64,000 nt of DNA from an uncultured Gammaproteobacteria bacterium (GTDB lineage: Bacteria > Patescibacteriota > Microgenomatia > CAYGWK01), in NCBI GenBank assembly GCA_964353785.1, contig CAYGWK010000004.1, positions 22,730 to 86,729 on the forward strand. The letters are read 5' to 3'. Made by a program: the position numbers and the translations under genes. Every line of letters begins with the position of its first letter. The first letter of the stretch is position 1. The notes below the pieces were generated by a model. It searched no databases and was not told where the DNA came from. It saw only the letters and a list, made by a program, of their open reading frames with translations. Shown piece by piece: positions 1,386 through 45,588 of this stretch.

Positions 1386-2357
1386 ATGGCAATTTTTAAG
1401 CAATCAGACCAATTTGTTCCTCGCAAGCTACCAGGAAAAATTTTAAAGCCAATACCAAAACCAAAAGGAGGAGGAAAATGGATTTTGACTCTTTTTGCCG
1501 GAAGCATAGTTCTAAGTTTAGGTTTATGGGCTTATGGCTCCTTAAAAACAGGAACAGGTATTCAAAAAATAATTAGCCCGCAGGTCGTTCCTACTCCGAC
1601 CCCGACCCCAACCCCCAAAAAAACTGCCGAGATAACCGATAAAGTTTCTGATTTAACCAAAAATTTAAAAGGAGAATATGGGATTTACGTTTTTAATTTA
1701 ACGACTAAGCAAGGATATGGAGTAAATGAAGATGAAATCTTTCCAGCTGCTTCTTTAATTAAACTGCCAGTATTTTTAACTTTATATCAAGAAGCAGAAG
1801 CTGGCAGAATTGATTTGGAGACAAAATATACTTTGAAAAATTCTGATAAACAGGCTGGGGCAGGAGGGATGCAATATAAGCCTGCGGGAACAGTTTTTAC
1901 TTATAGGCAGATGGCAGAATTGATGGGAAAACAATCAGATAATACCGCCGTTTTTGTTTTGCGAAAAATCCTAGGGGATCAAAAAATTCAATCTACTATT
2001 GATAATTTGGGGATGACAAAAACCTCTCTTTCAAAAAATGAAACTAGTCCTCAAGATTTAGGTTTATTTTTTAGAAAATTATATGCGGGTTCAATAGTCA
2101 GCCGAGAGCATCGGGATGAGATTTTGGGATATTTAACCGAAACTTTTGATGAATCAAGAATCCCGGCTGGCGTACCAGAAGGAACGAGAGTTTGCCATAA
2201 AGTCGGGACTGAAATAGGCATTATCTCCGATGCGGGAATCGTTTTTAGCCAAAAACCCTTTATTTTGGTAATAATGTCTGAGAATGTTAAAGAATTAGAA
2301 GCCAAAGAAGTTTTACCAAAAATCGCCAAGGAAGTTTGGGAATTTGAGAATAAATAA
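1386..2357 (+). CDS. class A beta-lactamase-like serine hydrolase, membrane-anchored with a PT-rich linker
   Basis: N-terminal TM helix, PTPTPTPTP linker, SxxK (ASLIK), SDN (QSDNTA) and KxG (HKVGTE) motifs in class A order. Confidence 0.7.
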   Translation: MAIFKQSDQFVPRKLPGKILKPIPKPKGGGKWILTLFAGSIVLSLGLWAYGSLKTGTGIQKIISPQVVPTPTPTPTPKKTAEITDKVSDLTKNLKGEYGIYVFNLTTKQGYGVNEDEIFPAASLIKLPVFLTLYQEAEAGRIDLETKYTLKNSDKQAGAGGMQYKPAGTVFTYRQMAELMGKQSDNTAVFVLRKILGDQKIQSTIDNLGMTKTSLSKNETSPQDLGLFFRKLYAGSIVSREHRDEILGYLTETFDESRIPAGVPEGTRVCHKVGTEIGIISDAGIVFSQKPFILVIMSENVKELEAKEVLPKIAKEVWEFENK

Positions 2358-2394
2358 ACTATTGACATTATGATAAATTTGTCATAAAATAATC

Positions 2395-2691
2395 ATGAAA
2401 GTTTTCTATCTGCCTGAAGTTGCCGATTTTGTAGAGAAATTAAGATATCAGGAACATACTCGATTAACCAGAGTACGAAAGCTCTTTGAAGAATATTCAT
2501 TTCAAATAGGTGCTAAATATATAAAGAAAATTACAGCCTCCGGAATATGGGAATTGAAGGCGGGCAGGATTAGATTGTTTTTATATGTCAAGGGAGATAA
2601 GGCGATAGGGGTTCATATAATTTGGAAAAAATCACAAAAATTGACTATTAGAGATATAAAATTAGCAGAAAGACGAAGCAAACAACTATGA
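2395..2691 (+). CDS. higB: type II toxin, HigB/Gp49-like (RelE/ParE superfamily)
   Basis: 98 aa; GIWELKAGRIRLFLY...WKKSQK motif characteristic of the Gp49/HigB family; 4-bp ATGA overlap with the downstream HTH gene. Confidence 0.7.
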   Translation: MKVFYLPEVADFVEKLRYQEHTRLTRVRKLFEEYSFQIGAKYIKKITASGIWELKAGRIRLFLYVKGDKAIGVHIIWKKSQKLTIRDIKLAERRSKQL

Positions 2692-2981
2692 AAAATAAAA
2701 GAACAAAACTTATTAGCGCTGAAGCATTGCATCGAAAATGGATGAAAGATCCAAAATATCGCCGTGAGTATGAAAAACTTGAGTCAGAATTTCAAATTGC
2801 TCGGCAAATTATTGGAGCAAGGATTAAAAGGAAAATGTCTCAGGAAGAGTTGGCGAAAAAAGCAGGAACTGGACAAGCAGTTATCTCCCGACTTGAGGGA
2901 ATGAACGGCAAACCTTCAATTTCTCTTCTTGAAAGAATCGCCCGCGCCTTGAATACAAAAATAAGGGTTACTATTCAATAA
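2688..2981 (+). CDS. higA: HigA-like antitoxin, XRE-family HTH
   Basis: 97 aa; HTH segment MSQEELAKKAGTGQAVISRLE; translationally coupled to the upstream toxin gene. Confidence 0.7.
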   Translation: MKNKRTKLISAEALHRKWMKDPKYRREYEKLESEFQIARQIIGARIKRKMSQEELAKKAGTGQAVISRLEGMNGKPSISLLERIARALNTKIRVTIQ

Positions 2982-3019
2982 ATTATCAGAGTAGTTTGGG
3001 AGTTTGAGACAAAGTAAAT

Positions 3020-3616
3020 ATGGTAATTATTAATTGGGATACGTTGTTAAAAATAGGCTCTTTAGCAGGATTAGCATCGTTTGTGTGGCTATTGATAAAG
3101 GATCTTGTTGGGTTTTACCGAAAACCAAAATTAGAAATTACATTTACAAAAAACAGAGATTTAAGGAATTTCTTCTTTGAGGATACGAAATGGGAAAGAA
3201 GGTTTGCCAATTTACATATTAAAAACAAGGGGAAAGATACCGCCAAAAGATGCGTTGCTATCTTGAGAGTTTTAACAAAACCACGAGAGGCTACAAATAT
3301 TGAAGAAGAATATGCTCTTCATTGGGCTGGAGTTGATTATTCTGCTCAAACAACCGGCGCAGAACCCGTTGATATAGGTCCCGAACCAAGAAGATTAGAT
3401 GTGGCGTTCACTCAGAATGGTCAGAATATAAATGGGAGTTGGATAGCGATGCCTCTTGCCTTATTGGGATCTTTAAGAAGAAATCAGGCGTATCTTCCAC
3501 CGGGTGAATACGAACTTAAAATTGAGGTTCAATGCGAGAACGGAAGTGGAGATAAAGCAAAATTTAAAATTATTTCTCCTCAGAATTGGGAGAATTTAGA
3601 TTTTGATAAGTTATAA
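3020..3616 (+). CDS. hypothetical protein with N-terminal TM anchor (cassette ORF)
   Basis: ORF with N-terminal hydrophobic helix; flanked on both sides by copies of the 3' end of the upstream hydrolase gene. Confidence 0.5.
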   Translation: MVIINWDTLLKIGSLAGLASFVWLLIKDLVGFYRKPKLEITFTKNRDLRNFFFEDTKWERRFANLHIKNKGKDTAKRCVAILRVLTKPREATNIEEEYALHWAGVDYSAQTTGAEPVDIGPEPRRLDVAFTQNGQNINGSWIAMPLALLGSLRRNQAYLPPGEYELKIEVQCENGSGDKAKFKIISPQNWENLDFDKL

Positions 3617-3807
3617 TATTTCTGGGACTTCTGCGGAAGAAGCTTTCCCGCCATTATCAAAATGGTTTGGGAGTTTGAGATAAAATAAATTTTCTTCTTA
3701 AAACACAAAAAGGCACCGCGAAAAGTAGTTTTGTTGCTCAACGCAACTCGTTACTTCTCTTTGGTGCCTCCTTGCACTATTCAGTTTCTGGAAGGATGTG
3801 TTGGGGG

Positions 3808-4302
3808 CTATTCCAGCGGTGATTCGAGAGACTCCTCGGCCTCTTTGATCTTTGGTTCCAAGACATCAGCAACATCACTTAGTCCCAGTGTGATGACGGC
3901 GGTGCCATCCTCTTCGGAAATCGTTGTTTCTTCTGAAAGAAGGCTAGATGTTTTGCTGGCTGACTTCCGAGTTTCATCAACGTGATGGGCCCTGATCAGG
4001 ATGTTGTCGGAATCTTGGGTTGTCCGGAGCGAGTTTATAACCTGTTCAGCTGCTCCTTCTCCGTTATCCCGATCGTAAAGCCAAGGATCGAGTGATTCAC
4101 CGCTTAGGTCCACCTTCATAACCCGACCCTTGAGATAGTCGAAGTCAGAGCAGCCGCGAGACAAAATCTCTTTGGCTTCTTCGACATCCATCGGTTTAGG
4201 GTCATAATGGAGGAACCCCATTCCTTGTGGTTTGGCCGCGTTGTATAGCGCTGCTAGAACAGCGGCTTTGTCCAATCCCTTCAGATCGATTAAATTAGAC
4301 AT
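3808..4302 (-). CDS. hypothetical acidic protein in a GC-rich foreign-looking segment
   Basis: ORF starting MSNLIDLKG with an AAGGAGA RBS 7 nt upstream; local GC clearly above the window average. Confidence 0.5.
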   Translation of the reverse strand: MSNLIDLKGLDKAAVLAALYNAAKPQGMGFLHYDPKPMDVEEAKEILSRGCSDFDYLKGRVMKVDLSGESLDPWLYDRDNGEGAAEQVINSLRTTQDSDNILIRAHHVDETRKSASKTSSLLSEETTISEEDGTAVITLGLSDVADVLEPKIKEAEESLESPLE

Positions 4303-4519
4303 AAATCTCTCCTTATTTAGTCTCACCTTAATAGGTGGCTTTCTGCCTACCTGGCAACAGATAAGCAAAGAGCCACCTACTCTGATGAGTAATCCTTCCG
4401 CAAACTGTAAAAGTGCAAGAATAAAAATTCAAACAAACAAAAAACAGGCAAGCAAATTAGCCTGAATTTGTTTGGCTTGATATGAGAATAATACCACAAA
4501 TAAACTCAAAAGTCAAATA

Positions 4520-6866: not shown

Positions 6867-9101
6867 TTAGGGAGTAGGAGATGGAGAGAGTAAATTTAGG
6901 GGGTTTATTTTGGCTGGGGCGGGTTTTTGCTCTGGAGGCAAGGGTGGACAATCAAGGCAAAAAATTGTTCCCAGGGGGTCCAAAATTACATTATGGTCTT
7001 GAGGTTCAACCCAATCAGGAAAAGGTTGGTCAGAGGAAATTTCTCCTGGCTGGACCGGAAGACCTGAAGTTTTATTTATCAAAACCGTTTTTCTTAAAGA
7101 TTCAGTCTCCTGAGGAACTGTTCCTTCCAAGAAATACTCAAACCGAGTTTGGCAGCCTGACTCTCCGAGAGCCATTCCGGAGACAGTACAAATACTTGCC
7201 CCAATTATACCTTCGGGCTTGATGGGCCAGTTTTGTTTCTGGCTTTTTAAAACAAAACTTATGATTTTATTCCAAATTGGTGAGGCGCCGGTCACCCCCG
7301 AAGCCACGGCGGACATTGGTTTGTTATCATTGTTGCCAACCCAAGTGGCAACTAAAAAGTCAGGGGTATAGCCGATTGTCCAGTTATCCTTTTTATCATT
7401 AGTGGTTCCGGTTTTGACGGAAACTTCAGGATGACCAGAAACCACCAAATATGAAGATGGTCCAAAGGCAAGGGAACGGGCATTATTATCAAGTAAGGTA
7501 TGAGAAATTAAATAGGCAACTTCCATGGGAATAATTCTTTCACCCTCTTGGATTTGGGTTTTTTCAAGTGTCTTTCCGGTATAATCAGAAACCTCTAAAA
7601 TTGAAACTAGCGGTTGTTTTATTCCTAAGTTGGCAAAAACCCCAAAAGCAGTGGCCATATCTGTCATCCGGACTTCGCCCCCACCCAAGGTTAGAGATAA
7701 ACCATATTGTTTTGGATCTTGGAGTGTCTCAAGCCCCATTTTTTGAGCAAAAGGAACAAAATTTTCTAAAGTATTTAAGGCTAAAACTTTAACCGCGACC
7801 ACATTAATTGAACTTCCTAGGGCAAATCTTGCTTGAAGCGGTCCATGGAAAGTATTGTCATAATTTGAGGGACAATAAAGTGGCTGACCAGTGACCTGGA
7901 AACAGGTTGGAGCATCGTTGAAGACTGTGGCTAAAGTTATTTTTTTATCCAAAAGTCCCAAAGCATAATTTAAGGGTTTGATGGCTGAACCAGGCTGGCG
8001 CAGGGCGGTTGAAACATTATAGTTTCCTTGAATATCTTTGGCAAAATAGTCTTTTGAACCAACCATGGCTAGAATCTCACCAGTTTTAGGGGCAGTTACC
8101 AAAGCGGCGCCATTTGAAACACGATAATTTTTAAGTTTGCCAACTTCAGTGGCCACTGCTCTTTCGGCAAACTCTTGAGTATCCAAATCTAAGGTAGTCT
8201 TAACCCGAAGCCCCCCTTGTTCAACTTGTCTTTGGCCATATTTTTCCACCAACTGTTCCTTAACGTACATGACAAAGTGGGGGGCTTTAATTCCAGTTTC
8301 ATGAGGGGCAAAACTAAGTTCCTGTTCTTTTGCTTTTTTGCTTTCTTCCTCGGTAATATGTTTGTCCTCAACCATTCTTCCCAAAACCCAAATTTGGCGC
8401 TGGAAAGCCAGTTCTGGATGGGCCCCAAAAGGAGAATATCTAGTAGGCGAGGCCGGCAGACCGGCCAAAAGAGTCGTTTCGGCTAAAGTCAAGTCGCGGG
8501 CGGACTTTCCAAAATAAAGTCTTGCCGCTGATTCTATTCCCCAGGCAGTTCCTCCGTAAGGAACTTGGTTTAAATACATCTCTAAAATTTTGTCTTTTGG
8601 GTAAATTACCTCAACTGCCAAGGTCAGAAAGAACTCGCGGATTTTTCTTCGGACTGTTCGCTCTGGTGTTAGGAGGGCATTTTTAACCAATTGTTGAGTA
8701 ATGGTTGAACCACCTTGAAGTTTTTGGTGAAAGATAATATTAAAGATGGCCCGGGCCATGCCTCGATAGGAAAAACCATGGTGGCGATAAAAATCTTTGT
8801 CTTCAGAGGAAATGGTTGCCCATTTGATATATTCTGGAACTTCCGAAAGTTTTATTGGAGTTCGGTTTTGGTCAGTATAAATTTCATATAATAATTTTCC
8901 ATTTCGATCAAAAATCTGGCTTGAAACAGGATAGGGCCAAGAGGTAAGTTTCCAGGGGGGAGGCATGTCCCAGAATAAATAAAGCAAACAGCAGACAGCA
9001 AACAGCAGACAGCAAACAGCAAGAAATTTTTGTTTAGTGGTTAATTTCTTAAATTTTTTACTGAACACTGGACGCTGAACGCTGGACACTGCTTTCTTCA
9101 T
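6867..9101 (-). CDS. class A penicillin-binding protein, second paralog (PBP1a-type)
   Basis: GGSTITQQLVKN GT51 motif, SAIKP, SIN, KTGTT motifs; start moved to internal Met (MKKAVSS) before the TM; Pro-rich C-terminal tail. Confidence 0.85.
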   Translation of the reverse strand: MKKAVSSVQRPVFSKKFKKLTTKQKFLAVCCLLFAVCCLLYLFWDMPPPWKLTSWPYPVSSQIFDRNGKLLYEIYTDQNRTPIKLSEVPEYIKWATISSEDKDFYRHHGFSYRGMARAIFNIIFHQKLQGGSTITQQLVKNALLTPERTVRRKIREFFLTLAVEVIYPKDKILEMYLNQVPYGGTAWGIESAARLYFGKSARDLTLAETTLLAGLPASPTRYSPFGAHPELAFQRQIWVLGRMVEDKHITEEESKKAKEQELSFAPHETGIKAPHFVMYVKEQLVEKYGQRQVEQGGLRVKTTLDLDTQEFAERAVATEVGKLKNYRVSNGAALVTAPKTGEILAMVGSKDYFAKDIQGNYNVSTALRQPGSAIKPLNYALGLLDKKITLATVFNDAPTCFQVTGQPLYCPSNYDNTFHGPLQARFALGSSINVVAVKVLALNTLENFVPFAQKMGLETLQDPKQYGLSLTLGGGEVRMTDMATAFGVFANLGIKQPLVSILEVSDYTGKTLEKTQIQEGERIIPMEVAYLISHTLLDNNARSLAFGPSSYLVVSGHPEVSVKTGTTNDKKDNWTIGYTPDFLVATWVGNNDNKPMSAVASGVTGASPIWNKIISFVLKSQKQNWPIKPEGIIGASICTVSGMALGESGCQTRFEYFLEGTVPQETESLRKTVLINKTSGLPVQPGEISSDQPFPDWVEPQDHNVILDPLGTIFCLDCPPLPPEQKPAPAKINPLNLLSPSPTP

Positions 9102-9209
9102 GCTTGTATTATAGCAGGCAAAGCCTTTATGGTATAAGCGAAGCTTGAAAACTTGTTTGAAAGCTGATGCTTTCAAAAGCCTTTGCCTTTTAGGCAAAGG
9201 AAGTTTATA

Positions 9210-9872
9210 ATGGTTTTTGTGAAAGAAAAAACCTTAAAATTAAAAAACGTAATTCAGCTTTATACTTTCATTTTTCTCATCTGGGGATTTTATCGATATT
9301 TATTTAGGCTTCCTGAAGAAATTGAAGAATTAGTTTTAAAACCTATCATTTGGCTTGGTCCAGTATTTTTTCTTCTTTTTAAAGAAAAAGCAAGTCTTTC
9401 CTCGCTCGGTTGGACAGGAAAAAATCTTTTTAAGAGTTTATATTTAGGAATAGGTTTGGGAATAATTTTTGCTATTGAAGGGTTATTTACTCATACCCTT
9501 AAATATGGCGGAATTTCTTTTGTTAAACTTGCCTATACCTCGCTTCCTGTTTTTTTAGTTGCCCTAGGCGTTTCTTTAGGAACAGCCATTTCTGAAGAAA
9601 CAGCCTTTCGCGGATATATTTTCTCAAGACTTTGGCAGATTTTAAAGAACGAATGGTTAGCAAATCTGGTCTCAAGCCTAGGTTGGGCCTTGGTTCACTT
9701 ACCCATTACCATTTTTGTTTTTCATTACAATCCGGTTCAGATTTTAGTTTTTCTCATTTTAACTTTTATTTTTGGGGCAGGCTCGGCTTTTGTTTTTGCC
9801 AGAACCGGAAATTTGGCTTCTTCAATTTTGCTTCACGTTTTCTGGGGCTGGCCAATAATATTATTTAGATAG
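9210..9872 (+). CDS. CPBP-family (CAAX/Abi) intramembrane glutamic protease
   Basis: Multi-TM; EETAFRGYIFSRL (EExxxR), later H and HxxxF-type motifs typical of the CPBP family; start chosen at MVFVKEK. Confidence 0.7.
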   Translation: MVFVKEKTLKLKNVIQLYTFIFLIWGFYRYLFRLPEEIEELVLKPIIWLGPVFFLLFKEKASLSSLGWTGKNLFKSLYLGIGLGIIFAIEGLFTHTLKYGGISFVKLAYTSLPVFLVALGVSLGTAISEETAFRGYIFSRLWQILKNEWLANLVSSLGWALVHLPITIFVFHYNPVQILVFLILTFIFGAGSAFVFARTGNLASSILLHVFWGWPIILFR

Positions 9873-9892
9873 ATTCTGCCTAAGGACAGGCT

Positions 9893-10336
9893 ATGAAAAA
9901 CATTGAAATTGATAAAGGCAGAGTTGTAGACACAAGGAAAAGTGGAGAACTTATCTGGCGTCGCCGCCAAATGCCTGATGGCACACGGTTTACCACTATA
10001 GAGAGGGTTGCATTATTTGTTTCTGACGAGAAAGGTGTAACAGAGGATTGGGACTTTGACAAATTGTATCATTCGATAGAAGAGGCATCATTTGGTAGAA
10101 TGACAGATGAACAGATTACAAAGATCATAAGTGAGTCTTTGCACCATTTTATATCGAAGAGAGATGGGTTGCAAAAAAGAGTGATATTTGCAAGAGATGT
10201 TGCAGAAACCGTATTTAGCGTATTAGAGAAAGTAGATATGGCCGCCGCTGTTTGTTATGGAGCAACTCATGGGGTTGGAATATTTAGTAGTGATAGCCTA
10301 GACCCGATTTCGGATTGGTTAGAAAAGAGAAAGTAA
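9893..10336 (+). CDS. hypothetical protein (cassette ORF)
   Basis: 147-aa ORF lying between two copies of the CPBP gene 3' end. Confidence 0.45.
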   Translation: MKNIEIDKGRVVDTRKSGELIWRRRQMPDGTRFTTIERVALFVSDEKGVTEDWDFDKLYHSIEEASFGRMTDEQITKIISESLHHFISKRDGLQKRVIFARDVAETVFSVLEKVDMAAAVCYGATHGVGIFSSDSLDPISDWLEKRK

Positions 10337-10442
10337 ATCAGATAAGCGTGATAGTCCGTAACACTTTAAGATGTCTTTTGGGGCTGGCCAATAATTCTGT
10401 TTAGGTAATTAGCTGATTAGTTGAACGGGGAATGGGGATAGT

Positions 10443-10769
10443 TTAGATCTTACCTATATCAAAATCAGATATCTTGTGCCGTTCAAGTTCCGCTTTAAGT
10501 CTGCGCTGCTCCCCTGGGGTTAATTGATTAAAAGTGACATTCAAAAGTCCTTCCACGACAGCCCTTATTGTTAAATTTATTAAATTTATATCCTTTTCAG
10601 ACAATTCGTCGCTTGGTTCAAAATCTTCAAAGATTTTCTTGAGTTGATCTTTTTGGAGTTGTAATAAAGAAGATTTATCAATTATTTCTAAGACATCAGA
10701 AAGAGGAATGAAGGCCTCTGGTTCTATTTCCGTTTCTGGAAGTTGAGGTTGATCTCTGCGTTCTGCCAT
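10443..10769 (-). CDS. hypothetical acidic protein
   Basis: 108-aa ORF, no recognisable motif. Confidence 0.4.
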   Translation of the reverse strand: MAERRDQPQLPETEIEPEAFIPLSDVLEIIDKSSLLQLQKDQLKKIFEDFEPSDELSEKDINLINLTIRAVVEGLLNVTFNQLTPGEQRRLKAELERHKISDFDIGKI

Positions 10770-10877
10770 TTATTTTAAAATAAATACTGCTCATTGAGCA
10801 GCTTTGAGAGATTTAAACATAAAAACACCCCCTTTGTCAAGATTTACTTTGGGAACTTATGTGTTATACTAAGGCTG

Positions 10878-11195
10878 ATGAGGAAGTGTCGTTATTGTGG
10901 GTTCCAAAATCCAGACACTGCCTCTGATTGTCTTCAATGCGGCAAAGATTTGCCTAAAACAACTCGAGAAGTCAAAGATGCCTTTGAAACTTTAGGGGCG
11001 GCCATGAAGGGGGATTGGGGAAAGGTTGGCCGAAAAACTGTTGAAGAGACAAAGCTTCACTTAAACCCTCTCTGGTGGCTTAAGGTAAAATTATTTCGTT
11101 TAAAACAAGCAGTCATCGGTTGTTTAATTATCTGGCTTATTATCATTGGTTTGGCTATTCTCGGCGGAATATTCTCTAAATTTCAAGGAAAATGA
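10878..11195 (+). CDS. zinc-ribbon protein with C-terminal TM helix
   Basis: CRYCGFQNPDTASDCLQCG zinc ribbon; C-terminal hydrophobic helix; 4-bp overlap with downstream HD gene. Confidence 0.55.
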   Translation: MRKCRYCGFQNPDTASDCLQCGKDLPKTTREVKDAFETLGAAMKGDWGKVGRKTVEETKLHLNPLWWLKVKLFRLKQAVIGCLIIWLIIIGLAILGGIFSKFQGK

Positions 11196-12130
11196 AAAAA
11201 AGAAAACCTGCTCTTCAAAAAATCTTAGTCGACGCCGGCGTTGAAATCGACCTTCCTCGGGCTTATGACGTTTTGGAGAAAAAATCAATTGAGACAGTTG
11301 AGGGAATTTTAAAAGATTATCCAAAAGCCCGGCAAATGTGGGAACTTTTGGTTTTTGATCCTGAAGTTCGAGCCGATTGGGACATGGCCGATTATATTGC
11401 CGTTACCAAATTAAATTTTAATGACCACGGAGAAATTCATGCCAAAATTGCCGCTGCTTCTTCTTTATCAATGCTTGACCTTTTAAGAAAAGCCGAAAAA
11501 AAATCTGATGTAATCTCTTCTGGGGCTGGAGATTGGGACGACGCCTTTTTAGTGGTGACCTGCGCCGCTCTTCTTCATGATATTGGCAACCAAGTCCACC
11601 GAGTTTCTCACGGAGACATTAGTCCCTATTTGGCTGTTCCTATTTTGGACAGACTCTTGCCTTTAATTTACTCGGAAATTGAGAAAAAAACCGAAATTCG
11701 GGGATTTATTCTTCATGCCATAAATACCCATGATGCCGAACCACCACCTCTAACGGTTGAGGCAGCTTTAGTTTGTATTTCTGATGCTTGTGATTTGACT
11801 AAAGGAAGAGGGAGATTAGCTTTTGATTTGGGAAATATTAATATTCATACGGTTTCCGCTCTTTCCATTGATAGTGTGGCGATTTTACCTGGAGAGCAAA
11901 AACCAATAAAAATTATCGTTACGATGAACAATTCAGCAGGAATTTTTCAGGTTGAGGAGGCTTTGGCTTCAAAAATTAACGCCGGACCGTTATCTGATTC
12001 AGTTGAAATGGTGGCGACCACCTATCCCAGAAAAGCAAAAACTGATAAAAGAATTATTTTTGAAATTGAAATGAAAGGAAGAAAATTTGAACCAAGAGGA
12101 GTTAAGAAAGGAGGTGAGAAGGAAAGTTGA
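11192..12130 (+). CDS. HD-domain phosphohydrolase
   Basis: H...LLHDIGN (HD motif) plus downstream His/Asp residues. Confidence 0.7.
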   Translation: MKKRKPALQKILVDAGVEIDLPRAYDVLEKKSIETVEGILKDYPKARQMWELLVFDPEVRADWDMADYIAVTKLNFNDHGEIHAKIAAASSLSMLDLLRKAEKKSDVISSGAGDWDDAFLVVTCAALLHDIGNQVHRVSHGDISPYLAVPILDRLLPLIYSEIEKKTEIRGFILHAINTHDAEPPPLTVEAALVCISDACDLTKGRGRLAFDLGNINIHTVSALSIDSVAILPGEQKPIKIIVTMNNSAGIFQVEEALASKINAGPLSDSVEMVATTYPRKAKTDKRIIFEIEMKGRKFEPRGVKKGGEKES

Positions 12131-12744
12131 AAAAAATTAAATATCTGGTTTTAGCATTAGCGGGATTAGTTTTTGCCATTGGAATTTTGAGCGCTTCGGT
12201 TTGGAGGATCCAGGCCCAAGTCTCAAGTCAAAATTTCAAGGTTCAAACAGTTCCTGAAACCTTAGGAGCAGAAATTACTCCGACTCCCTCGCCGATACCC
12301 ACAGTTGATTATTATCTTCCATACCCTGGGATTTTGCCTGATAACATTTTGTATCCTTTAAAGATGGTCCGAGATAAAATTTTACTAATCTTAACTTTTG
12401 ATTCGGTCAAAAAGGCAGAAAGACTTCTTCTTTTTGCTGACAAAAGGGCCAATGCCGCCAAAGCCTTAATTGAGGGAGGGAAGGTGGAATTGGGAATTTC
12501 CACCATAACTAAGGGAGAAAAATATTTAGAGCAGGCAATTGCCCAGGCTGAAAAAGCCAAACAGGCAGGTAAAGACACCACTGCTCTATATGAAAAACTC
12601 GCCCAAGCAACCCTGAAACACCAAGAGGTCTTAACTGGGGTTTTAGTTAAAGTTCCAGATACGGCAAAAGGGGCAATTCAGGACGCCCTTCGCTATTCTC
12701 GCCAGGGTTATGAGACCGTAAGTAGAGTGATTGAACAGAAGTGA
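12127..12744 (+). CDS. secreted/membrane-anchored hypothetical protein
   Basis: N-terminal signal/TM segment, helical alanine/lysine-rich C-terminal region. Confidence 0.5.
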   Translation: MKKIKYLVLALAGLVFAIGILSASVWRIQAQVSSQNFKVQTVPETLGAEITPTPSPIPTVDYYLPYPGILPDNILYPLKMVRDKILLILTFDSVKKAERLLLFADKRANAAKALIEGGKVELGISTITKGEKYLEQAIAQAEKAKQAGKDTTALYEKLAQATLKHQEVLTGVLVKVPDTAKGAIQDALRYSRQGYETVSRVIEQK

Positions 12745-13086: not shown

Positions 13087-13530
13087 ATGCGGTGTCCATT
13101 TTGTGGTCATGACCAGACAGAGGTTTTAGAATCAAGGATTTCTGAAGACGGAAATTCTTTCCGAAGAAGAAGAGAATGCGCCAAATGCAAAAAGCGTTTT
13201 ACTACTTACGAGCGGGCTGAAAGAACCCTTTTGGTGACTAAAAAGGATGGCCGGAGGGAATCGTTTGACCGGGAGAAAATTAAAAAAGGAATTCTTTTGG
13301 CTTGTCATAAAAGGCCAGTTTCCCTGGATTTAATTGACGACATGGTTGGTGAGGTTGAGCAAGAGCTTTTGCGAAAGGATTCAGCCGAGATTTCTTCAAA
13401 GACAATTGGTAATGCAGTTTTGAAGAGATTAAAAAAAGTCGATAAAGTCGCTTGGCTTAGATTTGCCAGTGTTTATTTGGAATTCTCTGACCTTTCGGAT
13501 TTTGAGAAAGCAATTGAAAAGGTTTCTTAA
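13087..13530 (+). CDS. nrdR: transcriptional repressor NrdR (zinc ribbon + ATP-cone)
   Basis: MRCPFCGHDQTEVLESR...CAKCKKRFTTYER zinc ribbon followed by an ATP-cone domain; canonical size. Confidence 0.95.
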   Translation: MRCPFCGHDQTEVLESRISEDGNSFRRRRECAKCKKRFTTYERAERTLLVTKKDGRRESFDREKIKKGILLACHKRPVSLDLIDDMVGEVEQELLRKDSAEISSKTIGNAVLKRLKKVDKVAWLRFASVYLEFSDLSDFEKAIEKVS

Positions 13531-13532
13531 AA

Positions 13533-15950
13533 ATGTCTAGTAGGGCAGAGGTAAGACCTCAATATTATCAACACCGCTTTTCTCCAGACAACGGCGAATT
13601 TAGGCAAATGCCTGAGCCTCTTCCTGTCAATCCAGATGGTTCATTTATGGATAGAAGAGAATGGATAAAAGAACAAGCTCAAAAAATTCCCACAATTTCC
13701 GAAGACCTTCCTGATCCAGTCTTATCCGAAAATGGACTTGTAGTTTTAGAAAAAAGATACTTATCTCGAGATGAGAAAGAGAATTTAATAGAAACTCCGA
13801 AAGAAATGTTTTGGCGAGTTGCCTACAATGTTGCGATGGCGGATAAACTCTATAACGGACAAGAAGTTGAAAGGACAGCCAGAGAATTTTACGAAGTTAT
13901 GGCGAATTTAGAGTTCTTGCCAAATTCGCCAACCTTAATGAATGCGGGGAGGCGACTTCAACAACTTTCTGCCTGTTTTGTTTTGCCGGTTGAGGATTCG
14001 CTGGATTCGATAATGGATGCAGCTAAAGCAACTGCCTTGATTCATCAATCTGGAGGGGGTACTGGATTTTCGTTTTCTAGGTTACGACCAGAGGGGAGTC
14101 CAGTGAAATCAAGCGGAGGACAAGCTTCAGGACCTCTTTCTTTTATGAAAATTTTTGATCAGACGACAGAGCAGATTAAACAAGGAGGAAGAAGGCGGGG
14201 AGCAAATATGGGGATTTTGCGAGTTGACCACCCCGATATTGAAAAATTCGTTAATGCCAAGACCAAACCTGGGGTTTTTGAGAATTTTAATCTCTCGGTA
14301 GCGGTAACTGATGAATTCATGGAAGCGGTTAAAGGGGATGGAGAATATGATCTTGTTAATCCCCACACGGGAGAAAAGACCAAAACTAAAGCAGGAGAAA
14401 TTTTTAATCTGATTGTTGAATGTGCTTGGAGGAGTGGAGAACCGGGAGTAGTTTTTATTGATGAAATTAATCGGAAAAATCCTACTTCCCATCTTGGACC
14501 GATTGAATCCACTAATCCTTGTGGCGAGCAACCTCTTCATCCATATGAATCCTGTAATCTGGGTTCAATTAATCTTTCTAAAATGATAAAAGAAGGAAGG
14601 GTTGATTGGGAAAAATTAGAAAAAACAATTAAGGTTGCGGTTCATTTCCTTGACAACGTGATTGATGTGAATCGTTATCCGTTACCCGAAATTGAGAAAA
14701 TGACCTTAGGAAATCGGAAAATTGGCCTTGGGATAATGGGTTTTGCCGATATGCTGGTTCAATTGGGAATTAGTTACGACAGCCAACCAGGGCTAGAAAC
14801 TTCCGAGGCAGTAATGAAATTTATTCAAGAAAAGGGGTATGAAGCATCAGAAGTATTAGCTAAAATCCGAGGTGTTTTTCCCAATTGGGAAGAAAGCCTT
14901 CATCAAAAAGAGGGAAGAAAATTAAGAAATGCGACAATCACGACGATTGCTCCAACTGGGACTATTGGTATCATTGCTGGTTGTTCTCAAGGATGCGAAC
15001 CGTATTACGCTCTTTCGTTTGAAAGAAAGGGAATTCTTGATGGGAAGACAACAATTTTTGAATTAAATCCTTATGTCGAAGAAATTACCAAAGAGGAATG
15101 TTTAGAAGAGGCGGTGATAGAAAGAATTAAAAAGGAGGGAAGTTTAAGGCAAATCCCAGAGGTGCCAGATAGAATGAAGAAAATTTTTCCTACCGCTCTT
15201 GAGATTTCTCCAGAGTGGCACGTAAGGATACAGGCAGCATTTCAAAGACATATTGATAATGCAGTTTCAAAAACAATCAATTTCCCCCAAGAGGCTACCG
15301 CTGATGATATTCGTCAGGCTTATCTTTTAGCTTACAATGTTGGTTGCAAAGGTTTAACAATTTACCGAGATAAATCAAGAGAAAGACAAGTTCTTTATGC
15401 AGGCGAAAAGAGAGAAGAAGTTGGAGAGCGCAGACCACGGTCTCGCCCAGAAGTAACCAGAGGGGAAACAGAGAAAATTAGTCTCGGTTGTGGTCAAACT
15501 CTATATGTAACTATAAATGAAGATAAAGAAGGGCTTTGTGAGGTATTTTGTCAAATGGGTAAGTCGGGTGGTTGTATAACTTCTCATTCAGAAGTAGTGG
15601 GGCGGTTAATTTCGCTTAACCTACGTTCTGGAGTAATCCCTGAAGCAATCATCAAGCAACTACGGGGAATTCGCTGTCCTTCCCCAACGTGGAATAGCGG
15701 GCGTTCGATCCTTTCTTGCGCCGACGCAATCGGTCAGGTAATAGAGAGATATAAAAAAGGAAGAGAGGGTGCCTCTCAAGAATCGTTTTTATCAATAAAA
15801 ATGTCACCGGAGATTAAAAACGAAGGACAGCATGATTCTTCTGAAAATGCCTTAGGTTATTGTCCAGAGTGTCCAGAGTGTGGAGCGATGTTTCAATTTA
15901 GTGAGGGATGCGTCAGATGTCCTGCTTGTGGATATTCTCAATGTGGCTAA
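13533..15950 (+). CDS. nrdJ: class II (adenosylcobalamin-dependent) ribonucleotide reductase
   Basis: LSACFVL, TNPCGEQPL active-site region, C-terminal CPECPECG...CVRCPACG zinc finger typical of monomeric class II RNR. Confidence 0.9.
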   Translation: MSSRAEVRPQYYQHRFSPDNGEFRQMPEPLPVNPDGSFMDRREWIKEQAQKIPTISEDLPDPVLSENGLVVLEKRYLSRDEKENLIETPKEMFWRVAYNVAMADKLYNGQEVERTAREFYEVMANLEFLPNSPTLMNAGRRLQQLSACFVLPVEDSLDSIMDAAKATALIHQSGGGTGFSFSRLRPEGSPVKSSGGQASGPLSFMKIFDQTTEQIKQGGRRRGANMGILRVDHPDIEKFVNAKTKPGVFENFNLSVAVTDEFMEAVKGDGEYDLVNPHTGEKTKTKAGEIFNLIVECAWRSGEPGVVFIDEINRKNPTSHLGPIESTNPCGEQPLHPYESCNLGSINLSKMIKEGRVDWEKLEKTIKVAVHFLDNVIDVNRYPLPEIEKMTLGNRKIGLGIMGFADMLVQLGISYDSQPGLETSEAVMKFIQEKGYEASEVLAKIRGVFPNWEESLHQKEGRKLRNATITTIAPTGTIGIIAGCSQGCEPYYALSFERKGILDGKTTIFELNPYVEEITKEECLEEAVIERIKKEGSLRQIPEVPDRMKKIFPTALEISPEWHVRIQAAFQRHIDNAVSKTINFPQEATADDIRQAYLLAYNVGCKGLTIYRDKSRERQVLYAGEKREEVGERRPRSRPEVTRGETEKISLGCGQTLYVTINEDKEGLCEVFCQMGKSGGCITSHSEVVGRLISLNLRSGVIPEAIIKQLRGIRCPSPTWNSGRSILSCADAIGQVIERYKKGREGASQESFLSIKMSPEIKNEGQHDSSENALGYCPECPECGAMFQFSEGCVRCPACGYSQCG

Positions 15951-18684: not shown

Positions 18685-18758
18685 GGGCACGTAGCTCAGC
18701 TGGTTAGAGCGCGATTCTTATAAAATCGAGGTCCCTGGTTCGAGACCAGGCGTGCCCA
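18685..18758 (+). tRNA. tRNA-Ile with anticodon UAU (TAT)
   Basis: Manual cloverleaf: acceptor GGGCACG/CGTGCCC, D-arm TAGCTCAGCTGGTTAGAGC, anticodon stem CGATT/AATCG with loop CTTATAA, T-arm CCTGG-TTCGAGA-CCAGG; CCA not encoded. Confidence 0.8.
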
Positions 18759-18759
18759 C

Positions 18760-19632
18760 TTAAAGTTCCTCGAGTTTTACCTTTTCTGCCCCGGTTTTTT
18801 CTTTAACGAATTGAAGATATTTTTCGGTGGTTGAAAGTCTTTTGTGACCAGCCAGCTTTTGGAGTAAAACTACTGAGGCTCCGGAGGCTAAATGGTAAAC
18901 TAGCCAGGTATTTCTGAGATCATTAACCTTGGCATTCTCAATGCCGGCAATTCGAAAATAGCGGTCAATTGAGGTTCTAATGTTTCGGACCAATAAAGGT
19001 CTGCCGGTTTTGGTCACAAAAACGCTCTTGTTTTTGGTTTTTGGTCGCTCGGCTAAATACTGGTCTAAAGCAGCCTTGGCGACCTTGTTTAAAGGGATAG
19101 TTCTTTCGGATTGGGACTCGTAAGGTTTGATATAGATTTCACCCTCTTTGATATTAGAAAGTTCAAGTCTTGAAAGTTCCCCAATTCTTACTCCTGTTTG
19201 AAGCATCAGTTCTACCGCGGCGGCCATTCTCGCGTCTTGCCGGCAAGCATCCCGGAGAGCTCGATATTCCATTTTGGAAAGAATTCTTGGCGGTTTAACC
19301 TCGTATTTTGGATGAGAAACAGATGCGGCTGGGTCTTCGTCAACCAATCCTTGAGATTTCAAAAACCTAAAAAAGGTTTTAATTGAGTTGATTTTTCGGG
19401 AAATTGACTTTAAGGTATAGCCCTTTTTGGAAAAGTCTTCTTTGAACTGGTCAAGATGCTCACTTGTAATTGAGGTTACCTGGGTTATTTTTTTACCATC
19501 CAAAAAAGAAACCAGCTGCTCGATGTCTTTACCGTATGCTAAAATGGTAGAGATTGAACGCTTTTGGCTTTTTAAATATTCTACAAACTTTTCGTGAGCC
19601 AAAGTTAGAGAGGTTTGTTCGCCTGCCATAGT
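18760..19632 (-). CDS. tyrosine site-specific recombinase (XerC/XerD / phage integrase family)
   Basis: N-terminal SAM-like domain; C-terminal catalytic region with LAGH..R...Y (HxxR...Y) motif; stop codon 1 bp from the tRNA-Ile 3' end, convergent. Confidence 0.8.
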   Translation of the reverse strand, partial: TMAGEQTSLTLAHEKFVEYLKSQKRSISTILAYGKDIEQLVSFLDGKKITQVTSITSEHLDQFKEDFSKKGYTLKSISRKINSIKTFFRFLKSQGLVDEDPAASVSHPKYEVKPPRILSKMEYRALRDACRQDARMAAAVELMLQTGVRIGELSRLELSNIKEGEIYIKPYESQSERTIPLNKVAKAALDQYLAERPKTKNKSVFVTKTGRPLLVRNIRTSIDRYFRIAGIENAKVNDLRNTWLVYHLASGASVVLLQKLAGHKRLSTTEKYLQFVKEKTGAEKVKLEEL

Positions 19633-19672
19633 AAACGGCGCTATAATATCACTTGAGAGGATATCTGTCAAG

Positions 19673-20026
19673 ATGAGAAACAAACTAATTACTGGGATAC
19701 TCTTTCTTTTTGGTCTCTACCTCATAGTTTCTTTCTCTCGGGATATTTTGGATCTATATCAAAAAAGTAAAGAAATTGAAAAAGAACAGTTTAAACTTGA
19801 AGAACTTCAGGTTAAAAATGAAGAATTAAAAAAGCAACTTGAATATGTCAAAAGTCAGGAATTTTTGGAGAAAGAGGCGCGAGAAAAATTAGGGTTGGCT
19901 AAGGAAGGAGAGGCAGTCGTCATTCTGCCGGAAAATGTTGAGGAGTTAATCAGTGGTAATCAGCCTCAAATCAGCGCTAATCAGGAAGTTCCTAACTGGA
20001 AAAAGTGGCTCAAGCTTTTCTTTTGA
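19673..20026 (+). CDS. FtsB/DivIC-like septum formation initiator
   Basis: N-terminal TM, coiled-coil, AREKLGL motif typical of FtsB/DivIC. Confidence 0.65.
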   Translation: MRNKLITGILFLFGLYLIVSFSRDILDLYQKSKEIEKEQFKLEELQVKNEELKKQLEYVKSQEFLEKEAREKLGLAKEGEAVVILPENVEELISGNQPQISANQEVPNWKKWLKLFF

Positions 20027-20054
20027 AGCAGAATTTGGTATAATTCTTCTGTCA

Positions 20055-20127
20055 CGCGGGGTAGTGTAAAGTTGCACGGAAGGCTCATAATCTTCCAGCC
20101 TGGGCGCGATTCCCAGCCCCGCAACCA
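20055..20127 (+). tRNA. tRNA-like sequence with CAT anticodon and noncanonical T-loop (possible degenerate/unusual tRNA)
   Basis: Cloverleaf foldable by hand: acceptor CGCGGGG/CCCCGCA with C1:A72 mismatch, anticodon loop CTCATAA, T-loop CGCGATT lacks T54-T55-C56; encoded CCA; abuts the next tRNA with zero spacer. Confidence 0.35.
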
Positions 20128-20199
20128 GGCAGCGTAGCTCAGTGGTAGAGCGGTATCTTCATAAGATAATGGTCACAGGTTCAAATCCTGTCGCTGCCA
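20128..20199 (+). tRNA. tRNA with CAT anticodon (elongator Met or lysidine-type Ile2)
   Basis: Acceptor GGCAGCG/CGCTGCC, D-arm TAGCTCAGTGGTAGAGC, anticodon loop TTCATAA, T-arm ACAGG-TTCAAAT-CCTGT. Confidence 0.8.
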
Positions 20200-20202
20200 C
20201 TA

Positions 20203-45339: not shown

Positions 45340-45510
45340 GATTTTTTTGTGTTTTGCGACTTAAAGAGTTCGGGTATGAACTTGTTGCTTGGTTTCGTCA
45401 TGGCATCCCCGCACCAATTCTGGTGCGGGGTCGCCCTCGGATTCTGAAATCCGAAAGTCGAGTTGTGTTTCGGAGTCCTCGGGCTTGCCAGGTGAAACCT
45501 GCGCAAAAGT
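45340..45510. repeat. GC-rich noncoding repeat element, copy 2 (candidate structured RNA)
   Basis: Conserved blocks shared with 12745-12905; internal hairpins GCACCAATTCTGGTGC and CGGATTCTGAAATCCG. Confidence 0.5.
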
Positions 45511-45588
45511 TATACCCTCACTCTTCGATCTGATAGTCTGATTCTCTGATCCTCTGAGTTTTCCGAGTTTTCTGATAGAATATTCTAG

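Follow-up and report, generated by a model that had tools for sequence, protein, structure and literature searches.

Displaced gene-end copies behind small inserted cassettes in a Patescibacteria genome

In this study, we analysed a window of 64,000 nucleotides (nt) from contig CAYGWK010000004.1 (positions 22,730 to 86,729; GenBank assembly GCA_964353785.1), which is placed in the Microgenomatia of the Patescibacteriota. A gene for an intramembrane protease of the CPBP family is followed in this window by a small inserted cassette and then by a second copy of the gene's own last 11 codons and stop. We refer to the working gene end as E1 and to the displaced copy as E2. Both encode the same peptide and differ at synonymous positions only, which points to recombination with foreign DNA that would have carried its own CPBP terminus. 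A serine hydrolase gene in the same window shows the same architecture with three gene-end copies. On balance, we lean towards Campbell-type recombination at the last bases of the gene, combined with tandem accretion of small modules, as the origin of these arrangements. Little is known of how the very small genomes of Patescibacteria gain accessory genes, and the loci described here show a concrete and repeatable route.

The repeated CPBP gene end and its cassette

The CPBP product is 220 amino acids (aa) long according to the Logan gene calls, and the 3' terminus of its gene reads ...LLHVFWGWPIILFR-TAG. E1 and E2 are identical at 29 of 36 positions in an ungapped alignment, with a perfect core of 17 nt (TGGGGCTGGCCAATAAT). 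A repeat of the CPBP gene end had been proposed in an earlier sequence-only reading of this DNA, and pairwise alignment confirmed it, above all shuffled and reversed controls. The coordinates proposed there were correct to within 1 nt, but the copy does not lie directly after the intervening open reading frame (ORF), as had been written; E2 starts 36 nt past the stop of ORF 9893..10336. Read in frame, E2 gives (stop)DVFWGWPIILFR(stop), the same peptide as the CPBP gene end. All seven differences between E1 and E2 are synonymous: six lie at third positions and one at the first base of a TTA/CTG leucine codon, and the stops are TAG and TAA. Not one of 200,000 random sets of seven substitutions preserved peptide and stop. 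A drift model, in which copy 1 is selected, copy 2 drifts, the copies are assumed to be identical at the start and each E1/E2 difference is synonymous with a probability of 0.31, gave p = 3e-4 to 1e-3 for the synonymous-only pattern. The terminus LLHV[FL]W.WPIILFR is kept across the CPBP family (47-95% identity) with free synonymous variation, and at synonymous sites E1 and E2 are as far apart as different genera are. The synonymous-only differences thus argue for an origin of E2 in the once-functional CPBP end of a diverged lineage and not in a target-site duplication followed by drift. By this coding pattern, E1 and E2 are predicted to be the ends of two diverged, functional CPBP genes, and E2 appears to have been displaced recently and to have been out of service too briefly to decay. 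A search for the donor with the 36-nt copies was uninformative, with E1 and E2 about equally far from every relative's gene end.

Copies of this kind exceed what chance produces. Scanning for downstream copies of the last 30 nt of each gene, we found one in 2 of the 67 window genes, namely CPBP (25/30) and the gene at 1386..2357 (23/30); the maxima obtained with Markov shuffles were 19-22. Across 742 genes of the window and the related loci, four scored at least 23/30, and the reversed-sequence control topped out at 21. The CPBP and 1386..2357 loci stood out again in a peptide-level scan of ~780 genes, and a pattern search recovered exactly two copies for CPBP and three for the hydrolase, where 0.0 and 0.1 were expected. 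The arrangement at the CPBP locus is identical in three independent Logan assemblies and is therefore no assembly artefact; furthermore, the exact core shared by E1 and E2 is, at 17 nt, too short to mislead an assembler with k=31. A third, decayed CPBP-end copy at 10770-10862, hinted at by the alignment to the closest relative, was rejected because its scores were at shuffle level (reached by 76-90% of shuffles).

There were no inverted repeats or terminal inverted repeats in or around the gene-end copies, the copies folded no better than shuffles (z = +1.2, +0.4, -1.95), and no dif-like symmetry was conserved among E1, E2 and the gene ends of loci L086 and L003, which are described below. The AATAATATTATT palindrome of E1 is missing in E2. 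No RNA gene was found in or near the repeats; Rfam shows only three tRNAs, far off.

Comparison with related genomes identifies the segment behind E1 as an insertion. About 80 related loci keep the gene order PBP(-), CPBP, DUF5667, NrdR, and the names given to near-identical proteins place the organism close to Candidatus Shapirobacteria (Microgenomates). L003 is the closest relative (CPBP 95% identical at the aa level and about 89% at the nt level); there, the remnant start of a zinc-ribbon ORF follows 18 nt after the CPBP stop, then DUF5667, and the window from 9873 to about 10850 has no counterpart (blastn, tblastn synteny; sequence). In L002, L004, L095 and L096, CPBP leads directly to DUF5667 and the cassette is absent. 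These empty sites show that the segment was inserted, and ORF 9893..10336, which the sequence-only reading had regarded as inserted, is missing from L003 and from these four loci alike. Roughly half of the related loci have a gap of less than ~115 nt between CPBP and DUF5667; in the others it measures 0.14-3.9 kb, and the junction is therefore an insertion hotspot. Of the zinc-ribbon ORF only the first ~15 codons are left in L003, and other relatives possess neither the zinc-ribbon nor the HD-domain gene that follow further downstream in the window (Table 1).

The cassette begins with the leader ATTCTGCC and its trailer ends in ...GTAACACTTTAAGAT. Its cargo had been called an unrelated orphan ORF, a label that has to be replaced: it is a diverged homologue of NrdR, so that the annotation is corrected to a zinc-ribbon-less NrdR paralogue beside the nrdR-ribonucleotide reductase operon. 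The cargo protein matches the solved NrdR structure PDB 7p37 (E=3e-8, residues 9-125) and, weakly, TIGR00244 (E=4e-5), and its Pfam matches to PF22811 and PF03477 are sub-threshold (ATP-cone 19.4 bits vs a curated cut-off of 25.8 bits). The first CxxC of the zinc ribbon is gone and the second now reads MPDG (CxxC...CPDC to ...MPDG). Since the zinc-ribbon cysteines are lost, the cargo is a homologue of NrdR but not a canonical NrdR. It is 25-26% identical to the canonical NrdR encoded at 13087..13530, 3 kb downstream, where nrdR heads a ribonucleotide reductase operon. Only one other homologue of the cargo was found among 5.8 billion proteins (71% identical). Potentially, a protein that lacks the DNA-binding zinc ribbon may modulate the resident NrdR/ribonucleotide-reductase operon by way of mixed oligomers. 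The GC content of the cassette is host-like. With regard to defence or phage functions, PADLOC and PHROGs yielded only generic HTH and RelE matches for the cargo, and no transposase family was found among the cargo. As a separate observation, nrdR is followed in the window (13533-15950) by a class I/II-type ribonucleotide reductase (PF02867 + TSCPD, 805 aa), and the matching place in the 89%-identical relative (L003:8144-10685) holds an anaerobic class III NrdD with its radical-SAM activase. Two close relatives thus differ by a swap of reductase class, beside the locus that gained an extra NrdR-like gene.

Table 1. Positions of the gene-end copies, cassettes and neighbouring genes in the window
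Feature	Position	Strand	Remarks
Class-A beta-lactamase-like serine hydrolase (PF13354)	1386..2357	+	End IAKEVWEFENK + TAA (E1, 2322-2357) repeated
Cassette A: HigB/Gp49-like toxin 2395..2691, HTH antitoxin 2688..2981	2358..2981	+	Pfam
Companion E2, IIRVVWEFETK + TAA	2982..3017	+	In-frame copy
Cassette B: 198-aa ORF, no family match	3020..3616	+	N-terminus hydrophobic by eye
Companion E3, FPAIIKMVWEFEIK + TAA	3644..3688	+	In-frame copy
186-aa ORF, no family match	3808..4368	-	Absent, with cassettes A and B, from L001, L090, L091, L092
CPBP gene (Rce1-like, PF02517 intramembrane protease)	9210..9872	+	Pfam E=4e-16; target gene, 3' end duplicated
Diverged patch	9803..9830	+	13 mismatches to L003 in about 30 nt; 5 aa changes
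E1, working CPBP gene end, VFWGWPIILFR + TAG	9837..9872	+	Last 11 codons plus stop
Inserted cassette	9873..10372	+	20-nt leader with AAGGA ribosome-binding site, ORF 9893..10336, 36-nt trailer
Cargo ORF, NrdR homologue (probable ATP-cone), 147 aa	9893..10336	+	All four zinc-ribbon cysteines missing
E2, displaced CPBP gene-end copy, VFWGWPIILFR + TAA	10373..10408	+	Stop codon precedes; in no long ORF
Flank TTAGCTGATTAGTT, 14 nt	10409..10422	+	Kept in L086 as TTAGTCGATCAG; right boundary of module
108-aa ORF, no family match	10443..10769	-	Also missing in L003; separate accessory insertion past E2
Zinc-ribbon (105 aa) and HD-domain (312 aa) genes	10878..12130	+	Accessory genes of this lineage
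DUF5667 gene	12127..12744	+	Conserved right-hand neighbour of CPBP in relatives; end of variable region

Displaced gene ends at further loci

The same module was recovered from an unrelated sample. L086 is a contig of 1252 nt that starts inside a CPBP end (WGWPIILFR-TAA) and continues with the leader ATTCTGCC, an NrdR-like gene (71% aa identical), a decayed gene-end copy with a 2-nt deletion, and the flank TTAGTCGATCAG. After this 14-nt flank the DNA is unrelated to the window and codes for a RelE/YafQ-type toxin and a putative antitoxin, and a third gene-end copy stands at the contig end. In a global alignment, window and L086 are homologous from E1 onwards, over cargo and E2, until about 14 nt beyond the stop of E2. 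Since the homology ends there and different DNA lies beyond, cassette and E2 form a discrete module. The first and last 30 nt of L086 overlap by 27 nt, as an assembler with k=31, which we take to be the setting of the Logan assemblies, leaves at an exact repeat of 33 nt; E1 of L086 therefore equals its E3. A further relic was observed in a distant relative (L026, 54% aa identity), where E1 and a decayed E2 (34/38 with indels) lie at 3640-3890, with a spacer of 142 nt between them. The spacer is of low complexity, rich in CGGATA/CAGAGA and without an ORF, and the decayed E2 has an internal duplication of 8 nt. We read L026 as a duplicated gene end with no cargo left, as judged from its layout.

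Upstream of E1, the window CPBP gene carries the diverged patch listed in Table 1. Its residues are GNLASSILL in the window vs GTVVASVLL in L003, and the 80 nt before the patch show 0-1 mismatch to L003. Relatives at 63-95% identity all carry GT..AS, and the window patch has the state of more distant lineages. The patch is probably an imported recombination tract, and its imported look suggests that a diverged CPBP allele recombined here over a tract longer than the repeat. P0170 and P0156 have a window-like C-terminal patch and were considered as donor lineages; both have empty sites and were rejected.

The sequence-only reading had compared the CPBP locus with positions 2334-3690. The architecture there is indeed the same, but that reading needs a correction, as the locus holds two cassettes and three gene-end copies, the last bases of which are 2357, 3017 and 3688. 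It was right that the repeat sequence differs between the two loci; at each of them, the repeat is the 3' terminus of the gene that stands there. At this companion locus, E2 and E3 agree with each other at 31/36 positions and each agrees with E1 at 26/36. The C-terminus of the hydrolase family is conserved (LP[KE]I[TA]K.VWEFE..), and the displaced copies E2 and E3 look like C-termini of diverged orthologues. Cassette A has its own near-consensus promoter, TTGACA-17-TAAAAT (2358-2394), the spacer and -35 box of which form a TGACA...TGTCA palindrome that is likely the antitoxin operator. In L001, L090, L091 and L092 the hydrolase stop abuts a convergent PBP gene, and these empty sites identify the window from 2358 to about 4520 as inserted. 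Pattern scans of IMG/VR for a viral carrier of the gene-end mimic gave nothing relevant; two matches were unrelated phage proteins that happen to end in VWEFELK and were discarded.

Possible routes of insertion

In the account that we favour by a modest margin over doubt, incoming DNA from a different Microgenomates lineage would carry a CPBP-homologous gene end together with the NrdR-like gene. We infer that the intermediate was circular or flanked by repeats and that a reciprocal (Campbell-type) crossover took place within the final ~36-50 nt of the resident CPBP gene. E1 would then complete the CPBP reading frame, and E2 would stay behind the cargo as an untranslated relic. Repeated rounds, or moves of composite units, might build short arrays by tandem accretion, such as those at the hydrolase gene and in L086, each with three copies and two cassettes. 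As to the enzyme, we have a slight preference for homology-dependent recombination of DNA acquired from relatives by uptake, after which whole arrays would spread by homologous recombination in flanking genes, over a dedicated recombinase acting in trans. The lack of an inverted-repeat core or of folding, the differing copy lengths (~33-50 nt), the unrelated sequences at the two loci, the missing integrase and the imported-looking patch upstream of E1 favour homology-driven exchange. In none of the loci was an integrase found within +-6 kb of CPBP. When XerD was compared by phmmer with every ORF of the window and of the loci retrieved up to that stage, a single match was obtained, at window 18760..19683(-), and Pfam scans of the cargo contained no serine recombinases, for which no aimed search was made. 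The sequence-only reading had put forward either homology-driven capture or elements whose attP copies the targeted gene end. Either predicts two diverged functional ends, in line with the synonymous-only differences.

Several observations weigh against Campbell-type recombination with accretion. E1 and E2 match perfectly over no more than 17 nt at a stretch, which is less than the roughly 25-30 nt that efficient RecA-dependent exchange usually needs. The six displaced copies are all short (~33-50 nt), for which a purely homology-driven process gives no obvious explanation, and arrays are typical of site-specific accretion. Gene-end duplications, which had been expected to recur across the genome, are rare, with 2 of 67 window genes and almost none in 80+ related loci. 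In L086 the middle copy is decayed and the outer copies are identical, an order that misfits one-at-a-time insertion at the working end; composite units would therefore have moved, or copies been converted. E2 is intact in the window and decayed in L086, and must have been renewed in the window lineage or spared by chance. Exact-protein look-ups of CPBP, cargo and 108-aa ORF for population variants of the site returned only the same occupied arrangement. No circle or excision junction was seen, and the three assemblies of the organism all carry the occupied site.

A serious competitor, to which we give roughly half as much credence, is that the modules are decayed or minimal site-specific elements, similar to cis-mobilizable elements (CIMEs), moved by a tyrosine or serine recombinase in trans, with each cassette family carrying an attP that imitates the 3' end of the gene it targets. 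In favour of this, the repeats have the small size of att sites (33-50 nt), and accretion typically gives tandem arrays (PMC5704250; for ssrA islands, PMC3146451). In addition, the outer copies of L086 match exactly along 33 nt, mobile elements typically carry toxin-antitoxin cargo, and from the hairpin-site arrays at the same junction in two distant relatives (L072 and L040, see below) it is evident that this group of bacteria has some dedicated cassette machinery. Against this, the arrays contain no integrase and have none within 6 kb, and the sole one in 64 kb looks like a housekeeping Xer. Two unrelated site sequences within 8 kb would need two specificities, the copies have neither an inverted-repeat core nor secondary structure, and their lengths vary between events. 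Moreover, the diverged patch is found on the left-hand side of the repeat, which a site-specific exchange should have left as host sequence.

The gene at 18760..19683(-) is the only tyrosine recombinase in the window; it has Xer-type domains and is located 8 kb from the CPBP array. In this region (18685-20200), tRNA-Ile(TAT) abuts the recombinase stop, and an FtsB/DivIC-like gene and two tRNA-Met follow. We considered a tRNA-Ile island and rejected it, as the neighbour is FtsB-like by inspection and there is no cargo. The gene is probably a housekeeping Xer.

Homology-facilitated illegitimate recombination appears unlikely. Here the 3' part of a foreign CPBP gene with its neighbour gene would have recombined within CPBP, and the other end would have been joined illegitimately just upstream of the resident end, which is now the relic. 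Natural competence is known in Patescibacteria, the imported-looking patch 9803-9830 reaches beyond the repeat, no integrase is present and the cassette composition is host-like. However, if the joins were random, relics of all lengths would be expected, and the six that are known from four genomes all measure ~33-50 nt and retain the stop. Arrays of two or three copies would need repeated similar accidents, and cassette and E2 move as a module in two genomes with different downstream DNA.

Two further explanations are very improbable, and to the same degree. A transposase or casposase-like enzyme with cuts staggered by about 36 nt could have produced a target-site duplication, the copies of which then diverged in place; a direct repeat does bracket the insertion and the outer L086 copies are identical, but an untranslated copy should gain mostly non-synonymous changes, contrary to the synonymous-only differences (p = 3e-4 to 1e-3), there are neither terminal inverted repeats nor a transposase, and duplication lengths differ between events. 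Alternatively, E2 could be the remnant of a tandem CPBP (or hydrolase) duplicate that was mostly deleted or overwritten by cargo. The copy does retain reading frame and stop; against this origin, a second CPBP gene occurs in 0 of about 90 related loci, three hydrolase copies would need a triplication, and the genus-deep synonymous divergence points to a foreign origin. Finally, chance similarity or an assembly chimera, for which the shortness of the repeat might speak, is hardly credible, since controls never reach the observed scores and three independent assemblies are identical.

If Campbell-type recombination at gene ends is correct, single-gene or toxin-antitoxin cassettes join conserved genes at their 3' ends and leave them undisrupted, and the displaced ends are datable scars. 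Such scars can be searched for in any genome as a gene-end copy with an in-frame stop, and coding-preserving divergence flags imports. If this operates without a dedicated integrase, cassette platforms extend beyond integrons; if a trans-acting recombinase is found, the loci represent a new family of minimal integrative modules.

Relation to known systems and hairpin-site arrays

Integration at a gene end is a kind of event that is already known; new here are the miniature scale and the lack of an adjacent integrase. Tandem accretion and integrase-less CIMEs at the 3' end of a target gene are established, with the ICESt1 family at fda and integrative mobilizable elements (IMEs) at tRNA or protein genes as examples (PMC5704250). 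As in CIME accretion, direct repeats of the target 3' end flank the insert, related genomes show the empty site, the working copy restores the gene, successive or composite integrations lead to arrays and some modules are without an integrase of their own. In contrast, the modules described here measure 0.5-0.7 kb and hold one gene or a toxin-antitoxin pair, vs several kb, and no linked integrase accompanies the arrays, either inside or next to them. A long identical core is lacking and the repeats are separated by many synonymous changes, and two protein-gene ends within 8 kb are used in a host of the Patescibacteria (Microgenomates). A repeatedly used site is also known from the ssrA islands of Dehalococcoides, which are ~12 kb in size and of which 16/31 have an integration module (PMC3146451). 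Like these islands, the present loci use a conserved gene as a repeated integration site and show much strain-level variation in gene content, but the target of the islands is an RNA gene and their repeat is thus free of coding constraint. The ssrA islands are arranged in tandem, and a copy of the 3' end of ssrA forms the border of each.

Three other systems share single features with the window arrays. Integrons and clusters of attC sites lacking integron-integrases (CALINs) likewise consist of small, mostly single-gene cassettes, including toxin-antitoxin pairs, each followed by a site-like repeat, and CALINs, as the loci here, have no adjacent integrase; unlike the sites of these systems, the window repeats are gene ends without hairpin potential and without RYYYAAC/GTTRRRY boxes. 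No IntI integrase with attI was found beside the arrays, and AAC...GTT boxes are absent from the E copies by inspection. Xer-dependent modules, such as integrative mobile elements exploiting Xer (IMEX) and the pdif modules of Acinetobacter plasmids, are small, integrase-less and often of toxin-antitoxin type, and use short repeated sites and the housekeeping recombinase; the Xer/dif site has about 28 nt, with two ~11-nt inverted arms and a 6-8-nt centre. The window modules resemble them in being integrase-less and having short repeats, and an Xer-like gene is present in the window. However, the repeats described here are coding, stand in direct and not alternating orientation, and have no two-arm dif-like structure. 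In rhs/cdiA orphan C-terminal modules, displaced 3' gene fragments gather downstream by recombination in a conserved segment. There the repeat precedes a variable toxin domain and an immunity gene, whereas here the final 11-15 codons, which do not vary, form the repeat together with the stop, and gene and cargo are unrelated.

In two distant relatives, cassette arrays lie exactly at the CPBP-DUF5667 junction (L072:6643-9990 and L040:688-2220). L072 has six sites and six cassettes and L040 three of each; the cassettes are set apart by these sites, imperfect palindromes of 24-45 nt with the form AATAATTTGTC[0-18 nt]TTCAAATTAGC. The first site begins 1-3 nt past the CPBP stop, and the sites form hairpins of variable length (z = -5.8, -4.0). 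Their cargo comprises two NUDIX genes, a GNAT, an acyltransferase, HigBA, a CopG-like gene and a 318-aa ORF. These arrays have neither canonical attC boxes nor an integrase within 6 kb, and no match was obtained in Rfam or in viral contigs. They are closer to integrons than the window repeats are, without the canonical boxes and the IntI gene, and from their layout they look like an integron-like platform with non-canonical sites. We claim no link between the window repeats and the L072 hairpin motif: the motif did not match the window even when 3 mismatches were allowed, and its apparent AATAATT...AATTAGC resemblance to E2 is too short to be judged. For arrays of gene-end copies like those of the window, the literature, which was covered to a limited extent, gave no description from Patescibacteria, and this is weak evidence of novelty; the literature on integrons or gene cassettes in Patescibacteria contained only resistome surveys.

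A more general idea, which we regard as doubtful, is that a gene-end 'address tag' of 35-50 nt, mimicking the last codons of the host gene, might direct Campbell-type insertion without a linked integrase and leave the host gene intact. With as little confidence, it might be supposed that the enzyme would be RecA after DNA uptake or a housekeeping recombinase, and that arrays would grow on ordinary genes in an integron-like manner. The notion that the hairpin-site arrays of L072 and L040 could be a second, more specialised form of the same platform is just as speculative.

Some minor observations concern the surroundings of these loci. The contigs of two close relatives end 60-140 nt past the CPBP or hydrolase stop (L001:6649-6784, L089:4294-4356), and these breaks may be due to population-variable downstream DNA. 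L003 carries ~1.9 kb that is absent from the window (L003:1805-3747), between two convergently conserved PBP genes, with two minus-strand ORFs of 342 and 269 aa, one of which has a Pro/Thr-rich tail; it is one more indel within this 15-kb neighbourhood. A stretch of 152 nt is 83% identical between window 45368-45519, where it overlaps an 83-aa minus-strand ORF without Pfam match, and the DUF5667-nrdR spacer of L003 (L003:7378-7528), and may be a small dispersed repeat or a relocated fragment. Lastly, a tandem 15-nt repeat (CAGCAAACAGCAGACAG-type) at 8983-9026, in the 5' end of the PBP gene 6867..9197 (-), encodes a repeated LLFAVCC in the membrane anchor and is present as a variant in L003.

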